64,000 bases of DNA from an uncultured Gemmatimonadaceae bacterium. GTDB lineage: Bacteria > Gemmatimonadota > Gemmatimonadetes > Gemmatimonadales > Gemmatimonadaceae. Within the stretch, counting starts at the first letter, position 1. Each line of letters begins with the position of its first letter. The notes under the pieces were generated by a model. That model was not told the DNA's origin, did no database searches, and saw only the letters and a program-made list of their open reading frames with translations. Shown one piece after another: positions 38,135-53,835 of the stretch. The stretch lies in the NCBI GenBank assembly GCA_963751275.1, contig CAVVTZ010000007.1:416001-480000 (forward strand), written 5' to 3'. Both the position numbers and the translations under genes were made by a program.

Positions 38135-38695
38135 CTATTTCGCTCCCGCCTTCTTCACCTCGTTCCCGAGCGTGGTATACGCGTCGGCCGACATCACGTT
38201 GAACGGTGCGCGGTACGTGATCTTCCCGTTGGGTGCGATCACGAACACGACGCGCGTGTCCATCGCGTACTTCTCGTTGTACACGCCGTACGCGGAGCCG
38301 ATCGCGTGGCCGGTGTCGCTCACGAACGTCATGGGGAACTTGGCATCGTGCGCCCAGCTCGCGAGCGTGGTGTCCGCATCGACGGAGATGCCGAGGACGA
38401 CGACGCCGTTGCCGTTGTTGAAGAGCGTGGCGTACTGATCACGGTACGCCTCCATTTGGATCGTTCAGCCCTTGGTCCGCGCCTTGAAGAAGAAGGCTAG
38501 CACGACGGTCTTCCCCTTGTACGTTGCGAGGCTCACCGAGGGGATGAGGCCGGACATGTTCGCGCCGGGCGCCGTGAAGTTCGGGGCGACGGATCCGGTG
38601 TCGACTATGGATGCCGTGGGCGCGGCCTGCGCGATGGCCGATGATATCGGAGCAGTGACGAGTACCGCTGCCGCGATGAGCCGGACGATTCTCAT
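38135..38695 (-). CDS. Secreted peroxiredoxin (BCP/AhpC-TSA type) selenoprotein, UGA read as Sec
   Basis: ORFs 38465..38695 and 38135..38455 are in frame. The TGA falls at the peroxidatic Cys position (FFKARTKG-U-T). GISVD and RVVFVI motifs follow. Confidence 0.85.
38429..38450 (-). promoter_or_regulatory. Candidate bacterial SECIS element
   Basis: GGCGUAC-CGUGAUCA-GUACGCC stem-loop starting 14 nt after the UGA, with GU near the start of the loop. Confidence 0.65.
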
Positions 38696-38770: not shown

Positions 38771-38891
38771 TGAAACGAACTGCTTTTGACAGGATGAACA
38801 GGATAACTGCTGATGAACGACATGAGGCGGCCCCGCCTCATGTCGTTCATCAGCAGTTATCCTGTTCATCCTGTCAAAGCAGTTCGCTTCA
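38771..38891. repeat. Long hairpin (GACAGGAT family)
   Basis: About 54-bp arms, 2-nt loop, one extra T. The outer end includes the stop codon of the dehydrogenase gene. Confidence 0.92.
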
Positions 38892-40106
38892 ATACTTGAA
38901 CGCCACCTTGATGCTGCCTTCCCCGCGTTTATCCATCGCGGTCGCGAGGGCCGCCCGATATTCGCCGAGCGGGAAGGTATGCGTCAGCAACGGGCGGACG
39001 TTGGCCTTCCCTGTGGAGATCAGCATCGCCGCTTCGTGGAAATCATCCGGATCCGCGGCACCATGCCCGTGTGACCCGTGGAACACCGAGCCGCGCACCG
39101 ACAGCTCCTTCACCCAGAGCGGCGTCCAGTCGAGTCCCTTCATCGTGCTCGAGTTGCCGAGCAGAACGATCGTGCCGCCGGCGGTGGTGAAGCGCATGGC
39201 GTCGTCCATGCCGCGGGCGCCGCTCACGCAGACGAACGTCAGGTCGAAGCCGCCGATGCCGATCGGTTTGCCGAGGATCGGCTGCAACAGTTTGGTGCCC
39301 GCGACGTCGGCGAGGGTCTTGAGATAATTCCCCTTCGCCTTCACGACGTTCGCGGCGCCGAAGCGCGTCGCGTGCTCGCCCTGGAAGTCGTAGCGCGCGA
39401 GCACGGTCACGCGCGCGGCGGGCGCGAGGGCGCGAATGGCCGCAGTCGCGAGCAGTCCGATGGAACCCGCGCCGATCACCAGCACGCGCGCGCCGGGCGC
39501 GGGAAGGTTCGAGCGCACCGCGCGCACCGAGCACGAGAAGGGCTCGATGAGCACGGCCAGCTCGTCGGGCATGCCGTCGGCCAGCTTCAGCAGGTGCGAC
39601 TCGTGCGCGACGAACTGCTCGCCCCACCCGCCGCCGAGACCGCGCGTGGTGCCGATGAGCACGCCGGCCGGCAGCGGGCCGGTCGTGAAATTCACGCAGC
39701 GCCCGTGCTGTCCGTCCGCGCACGCCGCGCACACCGGCGCGATGCCGCGCGACTCGCAGCAGAGCAGGGGGTTCGCGGCCACGCGGTCGCCGGCCTTCAC
39801 CGCGGTCACCGCGGCTCCGCACTCGATCACCTCGCCCACCAGCTCGTGGCCGAGCACGAAGGGGAAGCTCGAGAACGGTGAGTTCGAAGGGCTCGCGCCG
39901 AGCGTGACGACGTTGATGTCGCTGCCGCAGATGCCGCCCATCCGCGTGCGCAGGCGCACCCACTTGTCGGTCGGCAGCGCCGGCGCCTCGACGTCGCCGT
40001 ACGTCGTGCAGGCGTGCGGCCCCACGTAGAAGCGATCGCTCAGCTTGCCCGCGGCGAGCGTGGCGAGATAGGTCGGGATCGGCGCCGCGAACGAGATCGC
40101 TTTCAC
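38889..40106 (-). CDS. Zinc-binding medium-chain dehydrogenase/reductase
   Basis: GICGSD, LGHELVG, C-x8-CxxC-x7-C structural zinc site, GAGSIG. Confidence 0.88.
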   Translation of the reverse strand: MKAISFAAPIPTYLATLAAGKLSDRFYVGPHACTTYGDVEAPALPTDKWVRLRTRMGGICGSDINVVTLGASPSNSPFSSFPFVLGHELVGEVIECGAAVTAVKAGDRVAANPLLCCESRGIAPVCAACADGQHGRCVNFTTGPLPAGVLIGTTRGLGGGWGEQFVAHESHLLKLADGMPDELAVLIEPFSCSVRAVRSNLPAPGARVLVIGAGSIGLLATAAIRALAPAARVTVLARYDFQGEHATRFGAANVVKAKGNYLKTLADVAGTKLLQPILGKPIGIGGFDLTFVCVSGARGMDDAMRFTTAGGTIVLLGNSSTMKGLDWTPLWVKELSVRGSVFHGSHGHGAADPDDFHEAAMLISTGKANVRPLLTHTFPLGEYRAALATAMDKRGEGSIKVAFKY

Positions 40107-41014
40107 GCCGGCGCGCTCCCCTTGGGCGGCACCACGAGGCGCAGCGCCCGCGGCACGGTCGTGATCTCGAGCACCGCACTCTTCGCGCGGTTGTACTCGC
40201 CGTCGGTCTCGTACGCGGGCGGTTCCGTGAAGCGCAGCGTGAAGGACGCCGACTGTTCGGCGTCCACGCTCGCGTGCGTCATGTGCGTGCCCTTGCCCAC
40301 CGCGCCGAAGAGATTCGCGCGCTGGATGGGCGACGCGTCGTGGATCGCGATCAGGTCGAGCTTGCCGTCGGCGAGATCCGCTTTGGGTGCGATCACGAAC
40401 GTGCCGCCGAAATACTTCGCGTTCGCGACGATCACCATGAGATGCTGCTTCATGCCGCGCGGCTTGGCTGGGCTCGCGATATCCACCATGAGCCCTTTGT
40501 AGCTCAGCAGCTGCTTGAGCGCCGAGTACTTGTAGAGGAGATAGCCGCGCAGCCACCAGATGCTCTCGATGTCCTCGAGCACGGCGATATCGAAGCCGAA
40601 GCCGGTGATGTTCAGGAAATACTTGTCCTCGATCCGGCCGACGTCGATCAGCGTGTCGGGGCCGTGCACCGCCAACCGCGCCATCTGTTCGATGTCGGCG
40701 GCCGGGATGTCCAGCGATTTCGCGAAGTCGTTGCCGGTGCCCGCCGCCACGATCGCGAGGCGGCAGGTGCTCTTCGCCGCGACGAGCGCGTTGGCGATGT
40801 TGCTCCACGTGCCGTCGCCGCCGCAGCCGACGATCGTCGTGGCGCCCTCGCGCAGGGCCTGGGCCGCGAGTTCGCGTTCCTGGCCCGGCGAGGTGGTGAA
40901 TCGGATGTCGGTGACGCCGACGTCGGCGAACGCGCGGTGTATGTGCTCCGCCGTCTTCGCACCCCGCCCCCTTCCGGAGGCGGGGTTGACGATGACGGTG
41001 ACCTTCTCACTCAT
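40103..41014 (-). CDS. Diacylglycerol/sphingosine/ceramide kinase family protein
   Basis: IVNPASGRG, GGDGT, GTGNDFA, GFGFD, DGKLD, DGE. Confidence 0.9.
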   Translation of the reverse strand: MSEKVTVIVNPASGRGRGAKTAEHIHRAFADVGVTDIRFTTSPGQERELAAQALREGATTIVGCGGDGTWSNIANALVAAKSTCRLAIVAAGTGNDFAKSLDIPAADIEQMARLAVHGPDTLIDVGRIEDKYFLNITGFGFDIAVLEDIESIWWLRGYLLYKYSALKQLLSYKGLMVDIASPAKPRGMKQHLMVIVANAKYFGGTFVIAPKADLADGKLDLIAIHDASPIQRANLFGAVGKGTHMTHASVDAEQSASFTLRFTEPPAYETDGEYNRAKSAVLEITTVPRALRLVVPPKGSAPA

Positions 41015-41706
41015 CGCTTCGCGTAGCTCGCGAGCGTCTGGAGCGGGTGGAAGGTCTGGAGGCCGTTCTTCATCCACAACTCACGGAAGGGCTTGAAGTC
41101 CACGTCCCAATCCGCGAGCAGGTCGGTCATCGCCTGCGAATGGATCGTGATGCCGCCGCGCTCCTCTTCGTTCTCGCTGAACTGGCTCGCCATGATGATC
41201 GTGGAGGTGTACGCGCCCTCCTCGTCGTTCATGAACGCCTGGTAGCGGTGCTCCACGTTCGACCACTCGTGCTCGGTGATCGTCATGTCGACGATCGGCT
41301 GGCCGCGGTCGGTGGCGTGGATCGTGATGTGCCCGTCGCCGCGCACCCACGTGATGCCGATGTCCTGCATGTAGTGCGGCAGGTGCCAGCGCTCGATCGC
41401 GTGCTCACGCGATTCGCGCGTGGTGGTGCCGAGGCGGAACGGATAGAACGCGCTGCGCGGCATCGGCTGCCCCGGCTCGATGCGCGGGGCGACGAGGATC
41501 GACAGGATCAGCTCGCCGTAATCGCCGACCGGGCTGTTGGTGAAATCGAACGCCATGACCGACAGCACGCTGGAGCCGTGGTGCGGCTCGATCGGCTGCA
41601 GCTCGGGCGGCAGGATCGCCTTCGCGTTCTCCGTGGGGAACTCGAAGAAGCCGCCGATGGCATCACGGTAATGGTACTGGACGTAACCCTCTTTGCTCGT
41701 GCTCAT
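41011..41706 (-). CDS. Acetoacetate decarboxylase-like fold protein
   Basis: ILPPELQP, FTNSPVGDYGELI, AIERWHLP pattern; operonic overlaps on both sides. Confidence 0.55.
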   Translation of the reverse strand: MSTSKEGYVQYHYRDAIGGFFEFPTENAKAILPPELQPIEPHHGSSVLSVMAFDFTNSPVGDYGELILSILVAPRIEPGQPMPRSAFYPFRLGTTTRESREHAIERWHLPHYMQDIGITWVRGDGHITIHATDRGQPIVDMTITEHEWSNVEHRYQAFMNDEEGAYTSTIIMASQFSENEEERGGITIHSQAMTDLLADWDVDFKPFRELWMKNGLQTFHPLQTLASYAKR

Positions 41707-42983
41707 ACGAGAATGCCCTCTTCGCGGAGAACCTTGACGAGGATCGCGACGCCCTCGTCGAGCTGGTCGGTGGTGTGCGAGGCCGAGATGGACACCCGGA
41801 AACGCGACCGGTGCTTTGCCACTGCGGGATAGATGATCGGCTGCAGGTACAGGCCGGCGCGGAGGAGCTTGTGTCCCAGCTCGAACACGCGGCGGTCGTT
41901 CTTGACCATGATGGGGATGACCTGCGACGTGGAGTCGCCGATGTCCACGCCGGCCTCTTCGAGGCGGGCGCGGATGTGCGCCACGTTCTTCCAGAGCTGC
42001 GCGCGGAGCTGCGGCTCGGCCTGCGCGATCTCGAGGCTCTTCAGCACGCCCGCCGCGACCACCGGCGACAGCGCGCACGAGAAGACGCGCGACCGCGCGA
42101 ACCCTTTGAGATAGTTGTAGAGGTTCTTCGAACCGGCGACGTAGCCGCCCTGCCCGCCGAGCGCCTTCGAGAAGGTGCCCACGTGCATGTCGACCTCATC
42201 CTCCAATCCGAACTGCTCGGCGACGCCGCGGCCGTGCTCGCCGTACACGAACGCCGAGTGCGCTTCGTCGAGCAGGATGCGCGCGCCGTACTTCTTGGCG
42301 ACCGCCACGAGCTCGGGGAGCGGACAGACATCGCCGTCCATGGAGTACACGCCCTCGATGGCGACGAGGATCTTCTTCCCCTTCACCTTCTGGAGCTTCT
42401 TCTCCAGGTCCACCGGATTGTTGTGGCGGAAGAAGCGCACATCCGCCTTGGAGAGGATGGCGCCGTCCACGATGCTCGCGTGCGAGTTCTGGTCGGCGAT
42501 CACCCAATCACCGGGGCGCATGAGACCGGAGATCAATCCAATGTTCGTGCTGTAGCCCGTGGGGAAGACCATGACGGCTTCCTTGCCCTTGAACTTCGCG
42601 AGCGCCGCCTCGAGCTGCATGTGCACGTCCATCGTGCCGCTGAGGATGGGCGAGCCGGCGGCGCCGAGTCCGTACTGGTCGAGCGCGGCCTTCGCGGCGG
42701 CGATCACCTCGGGACGCGACGACAGTCCCAGATAGTTGTACGAGCTGAGATTCAGCAGCTCGAGCTTCTTCCCATCGCGCATCTCGGTGAGCATCACGTG
42801 CCCGCCCGGCGGCGTGGAGATCGGCTGGCCGAAGAGGTAGTAGCCCTCCGGCACGGCCCGGTTGTACCATTCGTTATACGGCTCAAGGATCGCGAACGGG
42901 TCGTCGCTCGACGAATAGAAGAAACTGCTATAGTCGTAGTCGAGCGGGTTCATCGCCGTTTGCGGTTCCATGCGGATCGCCAT
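41703..42983 (-). CDS. Alpha-oxoamine synthase family PLP enzyme, serine palmitoyltransferase-like
   Basis: SYNYLGL, FPTGYSTN, SHASI, YSMDGD, DEAHS, GTFSKALG. Confidence 0.8.
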   Translation of the reverse strand: MAIRMEPQTAMNPLDYDYSSFFYSSSDDPFAILEPYNEWYNRAVPEGYYLFGQPISTPPGGHVMLTEMRDGKKLELLNLSSYNYLGLSSRPEVIAAAKAALDQYGLGAAGSPILSGTMDVHMQLEAALAKFKGKEAVMVFPTGYSTNIGLISGLMRPGDWVIADQNSHASIVDGAILSKADVRFFRHNNPVDLEKKLQKVKGKKILVAIEGVYSMDGDVCPLPELVAVAKKYGARILLDEAHSAFVYGEHGRGVAEQFGLEDEVDMHVGTFSKALGGQGGYVAGSKNLYNYLKGFARSRVFSCALSPVVAAGVLKSLEIAQAEPQLRAQLWKNVAHIRARLEEAGVDIGDSTSQVIPIMVKNDRRVFELGHKLLRAGLYLQPIIYPAVAKHRSRFRVSISASHTTDQLDEGVAILVKVLREEGILV

Positions 42984-43011
42984 GTTGTGACCTCCAATTA
43001 TTCACTGCGGC

Positions 43012-43842
43012 ATGACTTCAGTACCGATCTCAGTACCCCGGGCGAAGAACCGCCTGGAGCGGGCGATCCGCGCGTTCCGCGGCTCGCTCTTCTTCATCAT
43101 CTGGCTGCCCTTCCTGAGCATCCCTGCGGCCATCGTCCAGCGCTTGATCGTGTGGCCCATGCTCACGCTGGCTCCCTCGCCGGCCCGCCGCGCCCAGCTC
43201 TATGGCAGCTGGCTGCGCCTGCATTGCCGGTTCGTGCTCTTCCTCGCGCGTGTCACCGCCGGCGTCCGCGTCACCGTCGAAGGATCGATCCCCGACGAGC
43301 CCATCGTCGCCGTGATGAATCACCAATCCGTACTCGACATCCCGGTCGCGGTGAGACTGTTCCACGGCGCATCGCCGCTCTTTCCTACCCGCGACCGCTA
43401 CAAATGGAAGATCCCGTTCCTCTCGCCGACGCTGCGCATGGGGCGCTTCCCCTTCATCACGCAACGGCCCGCGACGGTGCAGCAGGATCTGGATTCACTC
43501 GCTGAAGCCGCCTCTCGCGTCGCGCGCGGAGACAACTCCCTGCTCATCTACGCCGAGGGCCATCGCACGCGCGACGGCCAGATCGGCCGTTTCATGCGGC
43601 AAGGTCCCCGCCTCATCCTGACACAAGCCCAGCGTCCTGTCTACCTCATTGTAGCCGACGGCATGTGGGGCGCCCGAACATTCACCGATGCGCTGGTGGC
43701 GCTGGCCAACTCCCGCATCCATGTCGTCATCGACGGTCCCTATGATCCGCCGCATGCCGAGCATGCCGACGCCTTTCTCGACACGCTCCGCGACCGGATG
43801 ATCCACATGCTCGAGCGCATACGCGAGACGACTCCCGCGTGA
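43012..43842 (+). CDS. PlsC-like lysophospholipid acyltransferase
   Basis: NHQSVLD (HX4D), YAEGHRT. Confidence 0.85.
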   Translation: MTSVPISVPRAKNRLERAIRAFRGSLFFIIWLPFLSIPAAIVQRLIVWPMLTLAPSPARRAQLYGSWLRLHCRFVLFLARVTAGVRVTVEGSIPDEPIVAVMNHQSVLDIPVAVRLFHGASPLFPTRDRYKWKIPFLSPTLRMGRFPFITQRPATVQQDLDSLAEAASRVARGDNSLLIYAEGHRTRDGQIGRFMRQGPRLILTQAQRPVYLIVADGMWGARTFTDALVALANSRIHVVIDGPYDPPHAEHADAFLDTLRDRMIHMLERIRETTPA

Positions 43843-44846
43843 CGCTCGCCGACTCCCTCCTCGCCGAACCGGGCGCGACGGCCTCGTTCACCGCCGACGT
43901 GCTCGAGACACCCGACCCTGCCGCGGCGCAACTCTCGCGAGCGCTCGCCGCATCGTTCGGTCCCGCGTGTGCCGCCATCATCCACTACGGCTCGCACGCC
44001 CAGCGATCGGGCGCGAAAGCGGAAAGCGCGTTCGACTTCTTCGTCATCGTGTCCGACTACGACGCGGCGTACACGGCACTCGCCGCCTCGCGCGGGACGA
44101 AGCTCCGCCCGCGCACCGCCGCCCGTCTGAATCGCCTGCTGGCGCCCAACGTCATCGCGATCCGCTTTCCCGAGCTCACGCCGCCGGCTCTCGCCAAGTG
44201 CGCCGTGCTGTCCCAGGACGATCTCACCCTCGCCACCTCGGCGCAGGCGCCGGACCACTTCACCCAAGGCCGCCTCTTCCAGCACGTGCAGCTCGCCTGG
44301 ACCGGCACGCCAGCCCAACGGCATTCCGTGCTCGGCGCGCTGGCCGCGTGCCGTGCCCGAACGTGCGAATGGGGTCTGCCGTTCCTGCCCGCCGGCTTCG
44401 ATGAAGCCGGCTACATCCGGGCGTTGCTCGCGCGTTCTTTCGAGGCGGAGATCAGGCCAGAGACCGCAGACCGGATCGATACGCTGACCGGCGCTCAACG
44501 GGACTCGCTGGCGCCGGTCTATGACGAACTGCTGCAACGTCTTGAGCATCGAAAGATAATAGAAAACCGCGGCGATGTCTACCGTCTCGTGGCGGCCGTT
44601 CCCGCGCGGGAGCGCCGCCACTGGGAGCGATATTTCCGGCGCAGCAAGCGGCGGGCAACGATGCGCTGGGGGAAATACGTACTCCTCTATGACGACTGGC
44701 TCGACTATGTCGTCCAGAAGGTGGCGCGCCGGTCTGGCACGACGGTGGAACTCACATCGCGCGAGCGCCGCTGGCCCCTCATATTCCTCTGGCCGCGCGT
44801 GTTCCGCTATCTTCGCACCCGACCCCAACGCCGTCGCTCGACATGA
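43839..44846 (+). CDS. Tam41/Mmp37-like lipid-phosphate cytidylyltransferase
   Basis: IHYGS..FDFFVIV nucleotidyltransferase motif; KCAVLSQDDL; QGRLFQHV resembles the Tam41 AGRLQKPV motif. Confidence 0.65.
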   Translation: MTLADSLLAEPGATASFTADVLETPDPAAAQLSRALAASFGPACAAIIHYGSHAQRSGAKAESAFDFFVIVSDYDAAYTALAASRGTKLRPRTAARLNRLLAPNVIAIRFPELTPPALAKCAVLSQDDLTLATSAQAPDHFTQGRLFQHVQLAWTGTPAQRHSVLGALAACRARTCEWGLPFLPAGFDEAGYIRALLARSFEAEIRPETADRIDTLTGAQRDSLAPVYDELLQRLEHRKIIENRGDVYRLVAAVPARERRHWERYFRRSKRRATMRWGKYVLLYDDWLDYVVQKVARRSGTTVELTSRERRWPLIFLWPRVFRYLRTRPQRRRST

Positions 44847-45601
44847 CGCCGACCACCTACATCGCCGTATCACTCGCGTTCGCCTTCCTGCTCACGATGC
44901 CGGTGTACGCCGTCGTCGCGCGCGGGCGTCCGGTGGATGCCGAGGTGGCACGGCGGCCCACCACGCTGCTGCTGGGCGTGTGGGTGCGGGACTGGCTCAT
45001 GTGGGTGATCACGCCGGTGGAGCGCGCGCTGGTGCGCGTGAACGTGTCGCCGGACCTGCTGAACTATGGCGGCGGCGCGCTCGGACTCGCCGCCGGCGTG
45101 TCCTATTCGCAGGGCGCGATCGCGCTCGGCGGTACATTCGTGCTGCTCGGAGGGATCGCGGACGTGCTCGACGGGCGCGTGGCGCGCGCTCGCGGAGTCG
45201 GCAGCGCGTACGGCGAATTCCTCGACTCGATCATCGACCGCTTCTCGGAGATGTTCGTGTTCGTGGGCCTTGCGCTCTACTTCGAGCCGTCGCGTTGGGC
45301 GATGTTGAGTACGGTGGTCGCGCTCGGCGGCGCCATGATGGTGAGCTACTCGCGCGCGAAGGGCGCGGCGGTGGGCGTCGATTGCCGCGGCGGCGTGATG
45401 CAGCGCGCCGAGCGGCTAGTGCTCCTCGCGATCGCTTCGATGCTCGACAATCCGGTCTGCGACTACTTCGGCTGGCCCGAATCGTCGCTGCTCATCGCGG
45501 CCGTGACCCTGATCGGAGCGGCCAGCGTGGGCACCGCGGTGTGGCGGAGCTGGTCGATCGCGGCTGAACTGAAAGCGAGGAATGGCGGGGCTAAGAACTG
45601 A
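44843..45601 (+). CDS. CDP-alcohol phosphatidyltransferase
   Basis: DVLDGRVAR..GEFLDSIIDR, SYSRAK, GVMQRAER. Confidence 0.9.
   Translation: MTPTTYIAVSLAFAFLLTMPVYAVVARGRPVDAEVARRPTTLLLGVWVRDWLMWVITPVERALVRVNVSPDLLNYGGGALGLAAGVSYSQGAIALGGTFVLLGGIADVLDGRVARARGVGSAYGEFLDSIIDRFSEMFVFVGLALYFEPSRWAMLSTVVALGGAMMVSYSRAKGAAVGVDCRGGVMQRAERLVLLAIASMLDNPVCDYFGWPESSLLIAAVTLIGAASVGTAVWRSWSIAAELKARNGGAKN

Positions 45602-45683: not shown

Positions 45684-45692
<9 letters not shown>
45593..45692. repeat. Hairpin with (GGGAAAC)3 repeats that includes both flanking stop codons
   Basis: 43-bp perfect arms (45593-45635 / 45650-45692), 14-nt loop. Confidence 0.93.
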
Positions 45693-48357
<2,665 letters not shown>

Positions 48358-51752: not shown

Positions 51753-52304
51753 ATGGACGGCACGCCTCCCGAACCACCGGCGCCGGCAAGCACCGAACCG
51801 CTCGGCCGGCGCCGATTCCTCCGGATCGCCAGCGTGCTTGGCGGCGCGATCTCCGCGCTCCTCGTCGGCGTTCCCGCCGCGGCCGCCTTCCTCTCGCCGG
51901 GATTCAAGAAGCCCGCCAAGAAGGACTGGGTGAAGGTCGCGGATGACGTGGCGACGCTGGATGTCGGCACGCCCATCAAGGTGGACTTCGTCGAAGCCTC
52001 ACGCGACGCGTGGGTGGAGAGCCGGACGCTGCGCACGGTGTGGCTCTATACCGAGGACGGCGAGACCTTCACGGCGTACAGCGGCACCTGCACGCACCTG
52101 GGCTGCAGCTTCGGATACGACAAGGACCGGAACATCTTCGCGTGCCCGTGCCACCGCGGCATGTTCGACGTGAAGACCGGGAAGGTGCTCGGCGGCCCGC
52201 CGCCGCGGCCGCTCGATACGCTGCCGGTGAAGGTGGAGAACGGCGAGGTGCACGTGATGTTCGAGACCTTCCGCACCGGCATCGAAGAGAAGGTGGCGGT
52301 GTGA
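51753..52304 (+). CDS. Rieske [2Fe-2S] subunit of a cytochrome bc complex
   Basis: Tat RRRFL plus TM helix; CTHLGC, CPCH, GPPPRPL. Confidence 0.92.
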   Translation: MDGTPPEPPAPASTEPLGRRRFLRIASVLGGAISALLVGVPAAAAFLSPGFKKPAKKDWVKVADDVATLDVGTPIKVDFVEASRDAWVESRTLRTVWLYTEDGETFTAYSGTCTHLGCSFGYDKDRNIFACPCHRGMFDVKTGKVLGGPPPRPLDTLPVKVENGEVHVMFETFRTGIEEKVAV

Positions 52305-53835
52305 GCGGCAACCCCGGGGGTGGCTGGCTCGACCGCCGGCTCGATCTCTCGAGCATCCGCCGCGCGCTGCTCGACCGCGAAGTGCCCGACCGCCTCACGT
52401 GGTGGCACACGCTGGGCAGCGCCGCGCTCACCGCGTTCCTCGTGCAGGTCGTGACGGGCATCGTGCTCGCGACGTACTACGCGGCGGCGCCGGATCACGC
52501 GTACGAGAGCATCCGCTTCCTCCAGACCAGCGTGACGATGGGCGGCCTGCTGCGCGCGATCCATCACTGGGGATCGAGCGCGATGGTGGTGCTCGTCCTG
52601 GCGCATCTGGTGCGCGTCTTCTCGATGGGCGCGTACAAGTATCCGCGCGAGCCGAACTGGGTGCTGGGCGTGGTGCTCTTCCTCATCGTCATGGGATTCG
52701 GCTTCACGGGCTATCTGCTGCCGTGGGACCAGCGCGCGTACTGGGCGACGCAGGTGGGCACGAGCATCGCCGGGCACCGTGCCCGTGGTGGGCGGCGCGA
52801 TGACGCAGCTGTTGCGCGGCGGCTCGCAGCTCGGCGCGGCGACGCTGACGCGCTTCTACGCGTTCCACGTACTCTGGCTGCCGTTGGCGCTCGGGGGGTT
52901 CGTGCTGATCCACCTCGCCATGGTGATCCGGCAGGGGATCGCGCCGCGCACGGATGCGTTGGAAACAGGCGCGCCCGAGCGCACCAGCGATCCGGCGTAC
53001 CCGGCATACTACGAGAAGGCGTACGCGGCCACGAAGAAAGGCGGCGTCCGCTTCTATCCCGACATCATCGGCAAGGATGCGATCGCATCGCTCGTGGTGG
53101 TGGTGTCGCTGGTGCTGCTGGCGCTCGCCTTCGGCGCGCCGCTCGATGCGCCGGCGGATCCGACCGATTCGAGCTACGTGCCGCGGCCGGAGTGGTATTT
53201 CCTGCCGTTCTTCCAGTTGCTGAAGCTCTTCCCCGGTTCGATGGAGAGCGCCATCGCCGTGGGCGTACCGGGGCTGCTGGTGCTCACGCTGCTCGCGCTG
53301 CCGTTCTTCGACCGGCGGAGCACGCGCAGCATCCGCAACCGGCCGATGGCGCTGGTCGCGATCGTCGTGCTGCTCGGCGGGTCGGCGCTGCTGCTGGGCG
53401 GCGCGCTGCGCGACATTCCAGCCCACCGTCGCCCCGGAGTCGGGACGGCTCCTCTCGAGCACCGAGCGGGCGGGGCGCGCGCTCTTCCAGCGTCAGTGCT
53501 CGAGCTGCCACGTGGTCGGCAAGAACAAGGGCGGCGATGACGGGCCCGATCTCACCGACATCGGCCTGAAGCATTCGACGGGGTGGCTCCACAGCTACAT
53601 CGAGGATCCATCGCGCTTCCACCCGGACTCGAAGATGTCGGCATTCGGTCCTCCGGTGCTCACGCACCAGGAGATCGAAGAGGTGGCGCGCTATCTCGGC
53701 ACGCTGCAGGGAGCGCCCGGCACGAACCTGCCGCCCGAAGTGAACGACACCTTCCCCGAGCCGGCCAAGCACAGCGACGGGAAGAGTGCGAAGGATTCCG
53801 CGCAGAAGTCGCAGGCCAAACCCACGAAGGACTGA
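52301..53835 (+). CDS. Cytochrome b + subunit IV + monoheme cytochrome c fusion (frameshifts near 52773 and 53417)
   Basis: IHHWGSSAM..HLVR, GYLLPWDQRAYW, FYAFH..IH, PEWY; CSSCH at about 53497 and a distal Met (SKMS). Confidence 0.85.

Follow-up and report, generated by a model that had tools for sequence, protein, structure and literature searches.

A conserved gene cluster of Gemmatimonadota that may encode a variant route of bacterial phosphosphingolipid synthesis

The window, a stretch of 64,000 nucleotides from the genome of an uncultured Gemmatimonadaceae bacterium (G000; 3.1 Mb in 14 contigs, 83% complete), contains at positions 38889..45601 a compact cluster of seven genes that is the subject of this work. 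The minus arm comprises four genes, encoding an α-oxoamine synthase (AOS), a protein with acetoacetate decarboxylase (ADC) fold, a lipid kinase and a Zn-dependent medium-chain reductase (Zn-MDR), and the plus arm three, encoding a PlsC-family acyltransferase, a Tam41-fold protein and a cytidine diphosphate (CDP)-alcohol phosphotransferase. GC content at third codon positions is of coding type (0.81-0.93) and successive genes of each arm share 4-bp overlaps. The divergent start codons of the AOS and PlsC genes are separated by 28 bp (42984..43011), which hold a GGAGG ribosome-binding site for the AOS gene; no σ70 consensus site was found in 42700-43300, spanning this gap. Thus, the two divergent operons given in a preliminary description of this DNA are borne out, as are its gene labels, six by Pfam and the Tam41 label by fold, and its statement that no bio genes lie nearby, which holds for the open reading frames listed for 30000-54000 (12 of those were Pfam-scanned).

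Synteny, which the preliminary description had proposed to check, is conserved far beyond chance, in Gemmatimonadota as well as in metagenomic loci. Among the best 80 of 282 relatives in a species-genome scan with the ADC-like gene, all of them Gemmatimonadota, and counting loci with enough flanking sequence, the AOS gene lies directly upstream of the ADC gene in 68/68 loci, and the kinase gene is present in 69/69, the PlsC gene in 58/65, the Tam41-like gene in 55/61, the CDP-alcohol phosphotransferase gene in 48/54 and the Zn-MDR gene in 49/60. A survey of a further 300 genomes from the phylum detected the ADC gene in 11/71 members of the window's family (f1) and in 24/49 members of a second cluster-bearing family (f7), and in 0 genomes of the remaining ten families; the gene has no plasmid match. 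Among 12 f7 genomes (20 regions) the six genes other than that for Zn-MDR are found together in 8 and split in the other 4; Zn-MDR is found in no region, and 4 regions carry orphan ADC copies. These second or third copies (L113, L115, L119, L120) have no AOS close by, and three of them adjoin a heavy-metal ATPase-like gene. A distant lineage known from metagenome contigs only has a single operon with the order AOS-ADC-kinase-PlsC-Tam41-CDP-alcohol phosphotransferase; among the best 80 of 283 such loci Zn-MDR occurs in 0/80, and a gene for a short-chain dehydrogenase/reductase (SDR) immediately precedes the AOS gene in 31/33 loci with enough flank. Further upstream and on the same strand, a radical-SAM-like gene with a CxxxCxxC motif (L199:6702-7742; equivalents in L128, L130-L133, L136 and L179) may belong to this operon. 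The cluster is thus a six-gene core, i.e. AOS, ADC-fold protein, kinase, PlsC, Tam41-fold protein and CDP-alcohol phosphotransferase, plus an exchangeable reductase. A literature search, mostly of open-access main texts, found no publication on it.

The AOS (426 amino acids, aa; 41703..42983, minus strand; Pfam Aminotran_1_2), a pyridoxal phosphate enzyme, forms its own clade on the Spt side of its family and is predicted to catalyse the committed step. Its best relatives in the PDB are bacterial serine palmitoyltransferases (SPTs; 3a2b, E 6e-91), followed by Kbl (7v58, 5e-72), the cysteate enzyme structure 28eh (5e-59) and 8-amino-7-oxononanoate synthase of E. coli type (1bs0, 1e-53). It passes no NCBIfam cut-off, scoring 352.6, 367.2 and 298.5 on the three Spt models NF047599, NF047600 and NF047603 (cut-offs 500, 640 and 670), which the control Spts of E. 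coli, Roseomonas and Prevotella pass, and 369.5 of 426 and 356 of 460 on those for BioF and Kbl. In a 28-row tree the cluster AOSs form one clade (100/99) split from Kbl, BioF and HemA (98/98), and genome G081 carries separate BioF and Kbl-Tdh genes alongside its cluster AOS. An assignment as BioF or Kbl was therefore rejected, so that the AOS phylogeny put forward as a check in the preliminary description did not place the enzyme with either; its claim of an Spt-like AOS stands in so far as BioF and Kbl are concerned, but not for a canonical Spt, given the missed cut-offs and a position outside the Spt clade. Two AOS loci found on viral contigs both fall on the proteobacterial Spt side, and two further AOSs, from a Bacteroides conjugative plasmid (L215) and from Persicobacter (L210), score below every NCBIfam cut-off and are nearest to the cluster clade with weak support.

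Residues H168, D239, H242, K273 and N147 of the AOS are invariant in 22 rows. In the alignment with its PDB relatives its G110-S111, N147, H168 and GTFSK273 correspond to SPT Gly80-Ser81, Asn117, His138 and GTFSK, and Tyr82 takes the position of SPT Asn52, as in the Sphingomonas SPT 2x8u. Passages of PMC10196870 assign Gly80/Ser81, His138 and the GTFSKS motif to the serine site of SPT, and passages of PMC13692747 state that Asn117 is absent from cysteate enzymes. The latter, CFAT/SulA of sulfonolipid synthesis, have the AOS fold in common with the cluster enzyme, but contain Gly-Ala, no Asn and Lys280 where the cluster AOS has Gly-Ser, N147 and C303 (PMC13692747, in part), and their structure 28eh is a weaker match than SPT. 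Judged by these residues, serine is the likely amino-acid substrate.

The adjoining ADC-fold protein (231 aa; 41011..41706, minus strand) matches Pfam ADC with E 4e-7; a PDB search with an ADC sequence profile gave nothing significant, and a fold comparison was needed. Its model (predicted local distance difference test score, pLDDT, 94) aligns with 3bh2 over 210 residues (Z 22.4, root-mean-square deviation, rmsd, 2.9), and the ADC-like superfamily (3bh2, MppR 4jm3, Swit_4259 5upb, 4zbo) has this fold in common with it (Z 19.6-22.4, 10-16% identity). Whereas ADC itself relies on a Schiff-base lysine, the cluster protein has no conserved lysine after the helix-Pro motif, by which the position was mapped: what we take to be the place of that lysine is His111, which varies over 33 rows. 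Thus, Schiff-base chemistry is unlikely. E40, E65, Q156 and E209 are conserved, which suggests a binding or acid-base site. A complex prediction for the AOS dimer with the ADC-fold protein scored 0.02 against a mark of 0.32 and is not evidence either way.

Zn-MDR (405 aa, GTG start; 38889..40106, minus strand; Pfam ADH_N/ADH_zinc_N) has the zinc ligands C60, H87 and E88 as well as A237-R238 invariant in 12 rows. It is matched weakly by Tdh models (111 of 380 bits) and shows 25% identity to Tdh, which has Asp at the place of the Ala-Arg that follows the Rossmann strand. Ala-Arg at this place speaks for the use of NADPH and for a role in reduction, making Zn-MDR a plausible candidate for a lineage-specific, NADPH-type 3-keto reductase that is not part of the core. 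The SDR of the metagenomic lineage scores highest with the model for mycolate reductase (181 of 380 bits, below cut-off), and no clear orthologue of this SDR was found in 5/5 genomes tested, which gave matches at 36-43% identity. As two unrelated NADPH-type reductases are joined to the same operon, a keto-reduction step is supported, which fits a swappable ketoreductase. The earlier suggestion that the Zn dehydrogenase reduces the 3-keto base is thus plausible as to the step, given Ala-Arg and the SDR before AOS elsewhere, with the qualification that Zn-MDR is a lineage-specific member. More distant MDR homologues (E 1e-83 to 1e-104, compared with 1e-207 or better) occur in 47/49 f7 genomes, with or without the cluster; in the regions opened they are unlinked, save for one about 10 kb off in G150, and could act in trans.

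The kinase (303 aa; 40103..41014, minus strand; Pfam DAGK_cat and YegS_C) scores 137 bits on TIGR00147 (cut-off 118.65), whereas the Roseomonas kinase at the cpgB position scores only 27, and its identity to the CpgB type is 29% over 105 aa (E 9e-4). By these sequence comparisons it is of YegS/BmrU type and not of CpgB type; passages of PMC10331486 describe the two as separate clades with overlapping activities. PlsC (276 aa; 43012..43842, plus strand; Pfam Acyltransferase) has one PDB match, PlsC 5kym (E 5e-21), and its NHQSxxD (HX4D) and EGxR motifs are invariant in 33 rows. EGxR is presumably the glycerol-phosphate-binding block of the family, and its retention fits a phosphorylated acceptor. 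The enzyme is thus a candidate N-acyltransferase whose motif, together with the gene order, suggests that the kinase acts before acylation; the steps named in the preliminary description are kept in this scheme, but its order, acylation before phosphorylation, is reversed. Besides the cluster genes G000 has two CdsA genes and four other PlsC-family genes, and a dedicated set in the cluster therefore implies a different backbone.

The Tam41-fold protein (335 aa; 43839..44846, plus strand), a predicted cytidylyltransferase, has no Pfam match in the window, weak PF09139 matches being found in 10/41 rows, and a PDB search with its sequence profile gave nothing significant, so that a fold comparison was needed here, too. 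This shows the fold to be real: the model (pLDDT 91) aligns with Tam41 structures 7ecd (Z 21.3, rmsd 2.8, 243 residues) and 6ig2 (Z 17.4), with the next row at 7.3, and G51, S52 and D66 of the GS...D nucleotidyltransferase motif are invariant in 41 rows. All 10/10 plasmid matches to the gene come from Roseomonas and Pseudomonas, and in the two plasmid loci opened the homologue stands beside a lipid kinase gene in full spt clusters, at the cpgC position. The proteins encoded at this position are homologous to the Tam41-like protein (E 3e-13 and 1e-24; 27% identity to the Pseudomonas plasmid copy); the clusters compared were those of Roseomonas, Pseudomonas and E. coli, and identity with Caulobacter CpgC is inferred from position only. 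The two loci are plasmid-borne proteobacterial sphingolipid clusters (L103 on pPNP1, NZ_CP073662.1; L102 on a Roseomonas plasmid), of which that of Pseudomonas adjoins a class 1 integron. The preliminary description had called the enzymes non-canonical, which for the back half of the pathway is only partly true since this gene has its counterpart in known ceramide clusters.

The CDP-alcohol phosphotransferase (252 aa; 44843..45601, plus strand; Pfam CDP-OH_P_transf) is by sequence nearest to inositol-phosphate lipid synthases, with 127 of 180 bits for archaetidylinositol-phosphate synthase, 109 of 170 for PIP synthase and 105 of 350 for BT1523, all below cut-off. G000 also has an inositol-phosphate synthase gene with an adjoining PIP-synthase-like gene. 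In G191 a phosphotransferase of the window type (167 bits) is part of a canonical cluster with bCerS, CpgC, CerR and CpgB (L243, G191:C94), and this genome carries the alternative cluster as well.

The described bacterial ceramide route uses bCerS and CerR, and according to the preliminary description neither is recognisable here. A genome search of G000, at its 83% completeness, bore this out for bCerS, which it did not find (profile search, best E 1.2); for CerR it gave more distant SDRs, none of them recognisable as an orthologue. The profile was built from a Roseomonas homologue and E. coli YghO, which is reported to be bCerS (Stankeviciute et al. 2022); the gene for YghO adjoins spt, acp and a CerR-type gene. 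The SDRs of G000 reach 115 bits with one Gemmatimonadota CerR query and 70-78 with two others, compared with 115-182 bits among these CerRs themselves, phmmer and blastp bits not being strictly comparable. An SDR gene near an acyl-CoA synthetase gene (G000 C9:663813-664748) was set aside as CerR candidate on account of 28-38% identity and low scores. Across the phylum bCerS matches are present in 188/301 genomes, i.e. in 124/125 of the sister family f2, which has the ADC gene in 0/125, in 10/71 of f1 and in 17/49 of f7. bCerS was found in 0/14 f1 genomes bearing a cluster gene, all at least 90% complete, and 11/24 ADC-positive f7 genomes have no match, four of them being single-contig assemblies. 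Of six bCerS regions opened, four hold a canonical spt-bcerS-cerR operon and two an orphan bCerS; the latter belong to the cluster-bearing f7 genomes G160 and G118 and have no linked spt or cerR.

Taken together, the cluster is real and conserved and encodes a lipid pathway that has apparently not been studied, most likely a hitherto undescribed variant of phosphosphingolipid synthesis in bacteria. In particular, we propose, with confidence a little short of even, that its product is a phospholipid of sphingolipid type and that the route, which would dispense with bCerS and CerR, follows the pattern of glycerophospholipid synthesis. Genes, folds, motifs, synteny and distribution are observed, and from them we infer every substrate and the order of steps. 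The first step would be an AOS-catalysed condensation of serine and a long-chain acyl thioester, the second a reduction of the 3-keto group by an NADPH reductase, Zn-MDR in the window and the SDR in the metagenomic lineage. The kinase would then phosphorylate C1 to yield sphinganine-1-phosphate, a mimic of lysophosphatidic acid, and PlsC would acylate the C2 amine of the phosphorylated base to give ceramide-1-phosphate. The Tam41-fold enzyme may convert this to CDP-ceramide, onto which the CDP-alcohol phosphotransferase would attach a head group of polyol type, perhaps inositol phosphate. For the ADC-fold protein, handling of the long-chain keto-amine between AOS and kinase would be the most likely role, either by binding or in a cofactor-free step. 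Since sphinganine-1-phosphate is similar to lysophosphatidic acid, and ceramide-1-phosphate to phosphatidic acid, PlsC and the Tam41-fold enzyme would carry out the reactions typical of their families, with a new backbone as substrate. The metagenomic order SDR-AOS-ADC-kinase-PlsC-Tam41-CDP-alcohol phosphotransferase nearly follows the proposed reaction order.

The reference system is the ceramide-phosphoglycerate pathway of Caulobacter (spt, bcerS, cerR, cpgB, cpgC and cpgA; PMC11324152, PMC12275187 and PMC10331486, each in part), the genetics of which are covered in PMC11324152. Both systems place an AOS gene beside genes for a kinase of the DAGK fold, a CpgC-type protein and a CDP-alcohol phosphotransferase. 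In contrast to Caulobacter, the window cluster is without bCerS, CerR, AcpR and AasR, its kinase is of YegS type and its CDP enzyme of PIP-synthase type, and clusters of its kind add PlsC, the ADC-fold protein and an MDR or SDR. The canonical spt-bcerS-cerR operon, although found in the same phylum and likewise starting with an AOS, has an AOS of another clade and other downstream genes. With the glycerophospholipid route (PlsC, Tam41/CdsA, PIP synthase) the cluster enzymes have families and folds in common (Tam41 7ecd, 6ig2), but here the set is duplicated beside an AOS although G000 has its own CdsA, PlsC and PIP-synthase-like genes.

Several observations weigh against this proposal, and some of them favour other explanations. 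We know of no PlsC-family N-acyltransferase, the known enzymes of this family being O-acyltransferases. Moreover, PlsC is missing in 9/30 metagenomic loci that carry both kinase and Tam41 genes, a bCerS match is present in 13/24 ADC-positive f7 genomes, and within f1 the mutual absence of bCerS and cluster falls short of significance (P 0.09; related genomes are not independent). No linked reductase was found in f7 clusters or in G081. It is conceivable, though unlikely, that a phosphosphingolipid is made but that PlsC O-acylates it, e.g. at C3, and that the amide comes from an orphan bCerS, such as those standing alone in G160 and G118, or from another enzyme, or that the amine stays free; the lack of bCerS in G000 and in the 14 f1 and 11 f7 genomes, and a PlsC gene kept in 58/65 Gemmatimonadota loci, speak against this.

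Other objections concern the front half. In a 22-row tree that takes in four Spts of canonical Gemmatimonadota operons, with small sampling and long branches nearby, the cluster AOS is left out of the clade formed by eight Spts (96), and at the substrate loop it reads GSPILSG, compared with GSR..NG in the sampled Spts, Arg82 and Asn85 of SPT being replaced by the invariant P112 and S115. As the AOS lies outside the canonical Spt clade and its loop differs, its amino acid may differ from serine, and in place of a true sphingoid base the product could be an aminolipid backbone of a new kind. The scores under all three Spt cut-offs and the obligate ADC-fold neighbour, absent from the canonical clusters examined, would agree with this, but we judge it improbable, because the kinase needs a hydroxyl group, the simplest source of which is serine, and because the serine-site residues are kept, including Tyr82 as in 2x8u, whereas the Gly-Ala and Lys of the cysteate type are not.

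A similarly poor chance is given to a scheme in which the front enzymes, i.e. AOS, ADC-fold protein and reductase, turn a short acyl-CoA into a small amino-alcohol head group, for transfer to an ordinary CDP-diacylglycerol made by the remaining enzymes, all of which belong to glycerophospholipid families. Genomes G244, G031 and G012 retain the Tam41 and CDP genes without a cluster-type AOS, the only AOS found in G244 and G031 being Kbl. In genus g8 a gene of 550 aa between the kinase and Tam41 genes (L237:6863-8530 in G244 and L020:9463-11115 in G012) replaces those for AOS, ADC-fold protein and PlsC while the MDR, kinase, Tam41 and CDP genes remain, as if a front module had been swapped. Its product matches no Pfam family or PDB sequence, and HLH and NHG motifs in its C-terminal part are reminiscent of class II aldolases. 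Such loci might be remnants, or modules put to another use, but on their account a glycerolipid interpretation has to be kept in view. Against the head-group scheme stand the additional CdsA and PlsC-family genes of G000, the ADC fold without catalytic lysine, the Tam41 homologues in ceramide clusters and an AOS-SPT alignment that starts at residue 46 and takes in the acyl-site region around Tyr27. Finally, a reading of AOS and Zn dehydrogenase as Kbl and Tdh, or of AOS as BioF, in an incidental neighbourhood is strongly disfavoured and very improbable, since the top NCBIfam score for BioF (369.5, compared with 367.2 for Spt) and the weak MDR match to Tdh are outweighed by the split in the trees (98/98 and 97), the strict association with lipid genes, the separate genes in G081, Kbl-like and Tdh-like matches on contig C9 of G000 and the low identity and Ala-Arg of the MDR.

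Near the cluster, a peroxiredoxin-like gene (38135-38695, minus strand), presumably of the AhpC/TSA family, is broken by one in-frame TGA (38465-38467) just before TIQM, and homologous open reading frames in L019, L089, L113 and L236 likewise start after this point; the TGA is possibly a selenocysteine codon. The genes for aconitase (45684-48357) and a cytochrome b-like protein (52010-53569) each lie in two overlapping frames, probably owing to assembly frameshifts.

Returning to the proposed phosphosphingolipid route, we speculate further, and regard as possible but rather doubtful, that it is a third, independently assembled route to ceramide lipids, in which PlsC N-acylates sphinganine-1-phosphate, Tam41-fold proteins of CpgC type are CDP-ceramide synthases and the ADC-fold protein is a new factor for handling long-chain bases. 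If true, ceramide-1-phosphate would arise without free ceramide, and the CpgC step of Caulobacter would be explained: passages of PMC12275187 report that CpgC is required to convert ceramide-1-phosphate by an unidentified mechanism, and the Tam41 fold of the CpgC homologue predicts CDP-ceramide, i.e. a testable mechanism. It would also extend the PlsC family to amide formation. Surveys judge bacterial sphingolipid producers by Spt together with bCerS and CerR; passages of PMC11334938 note that Spt-like genes occur without bCerS and CerR and raise replacement by non-homologous enzymes as a possibility. With the cluster, specific genes of soil bacteria can be named as candidates for this kind of replacement.

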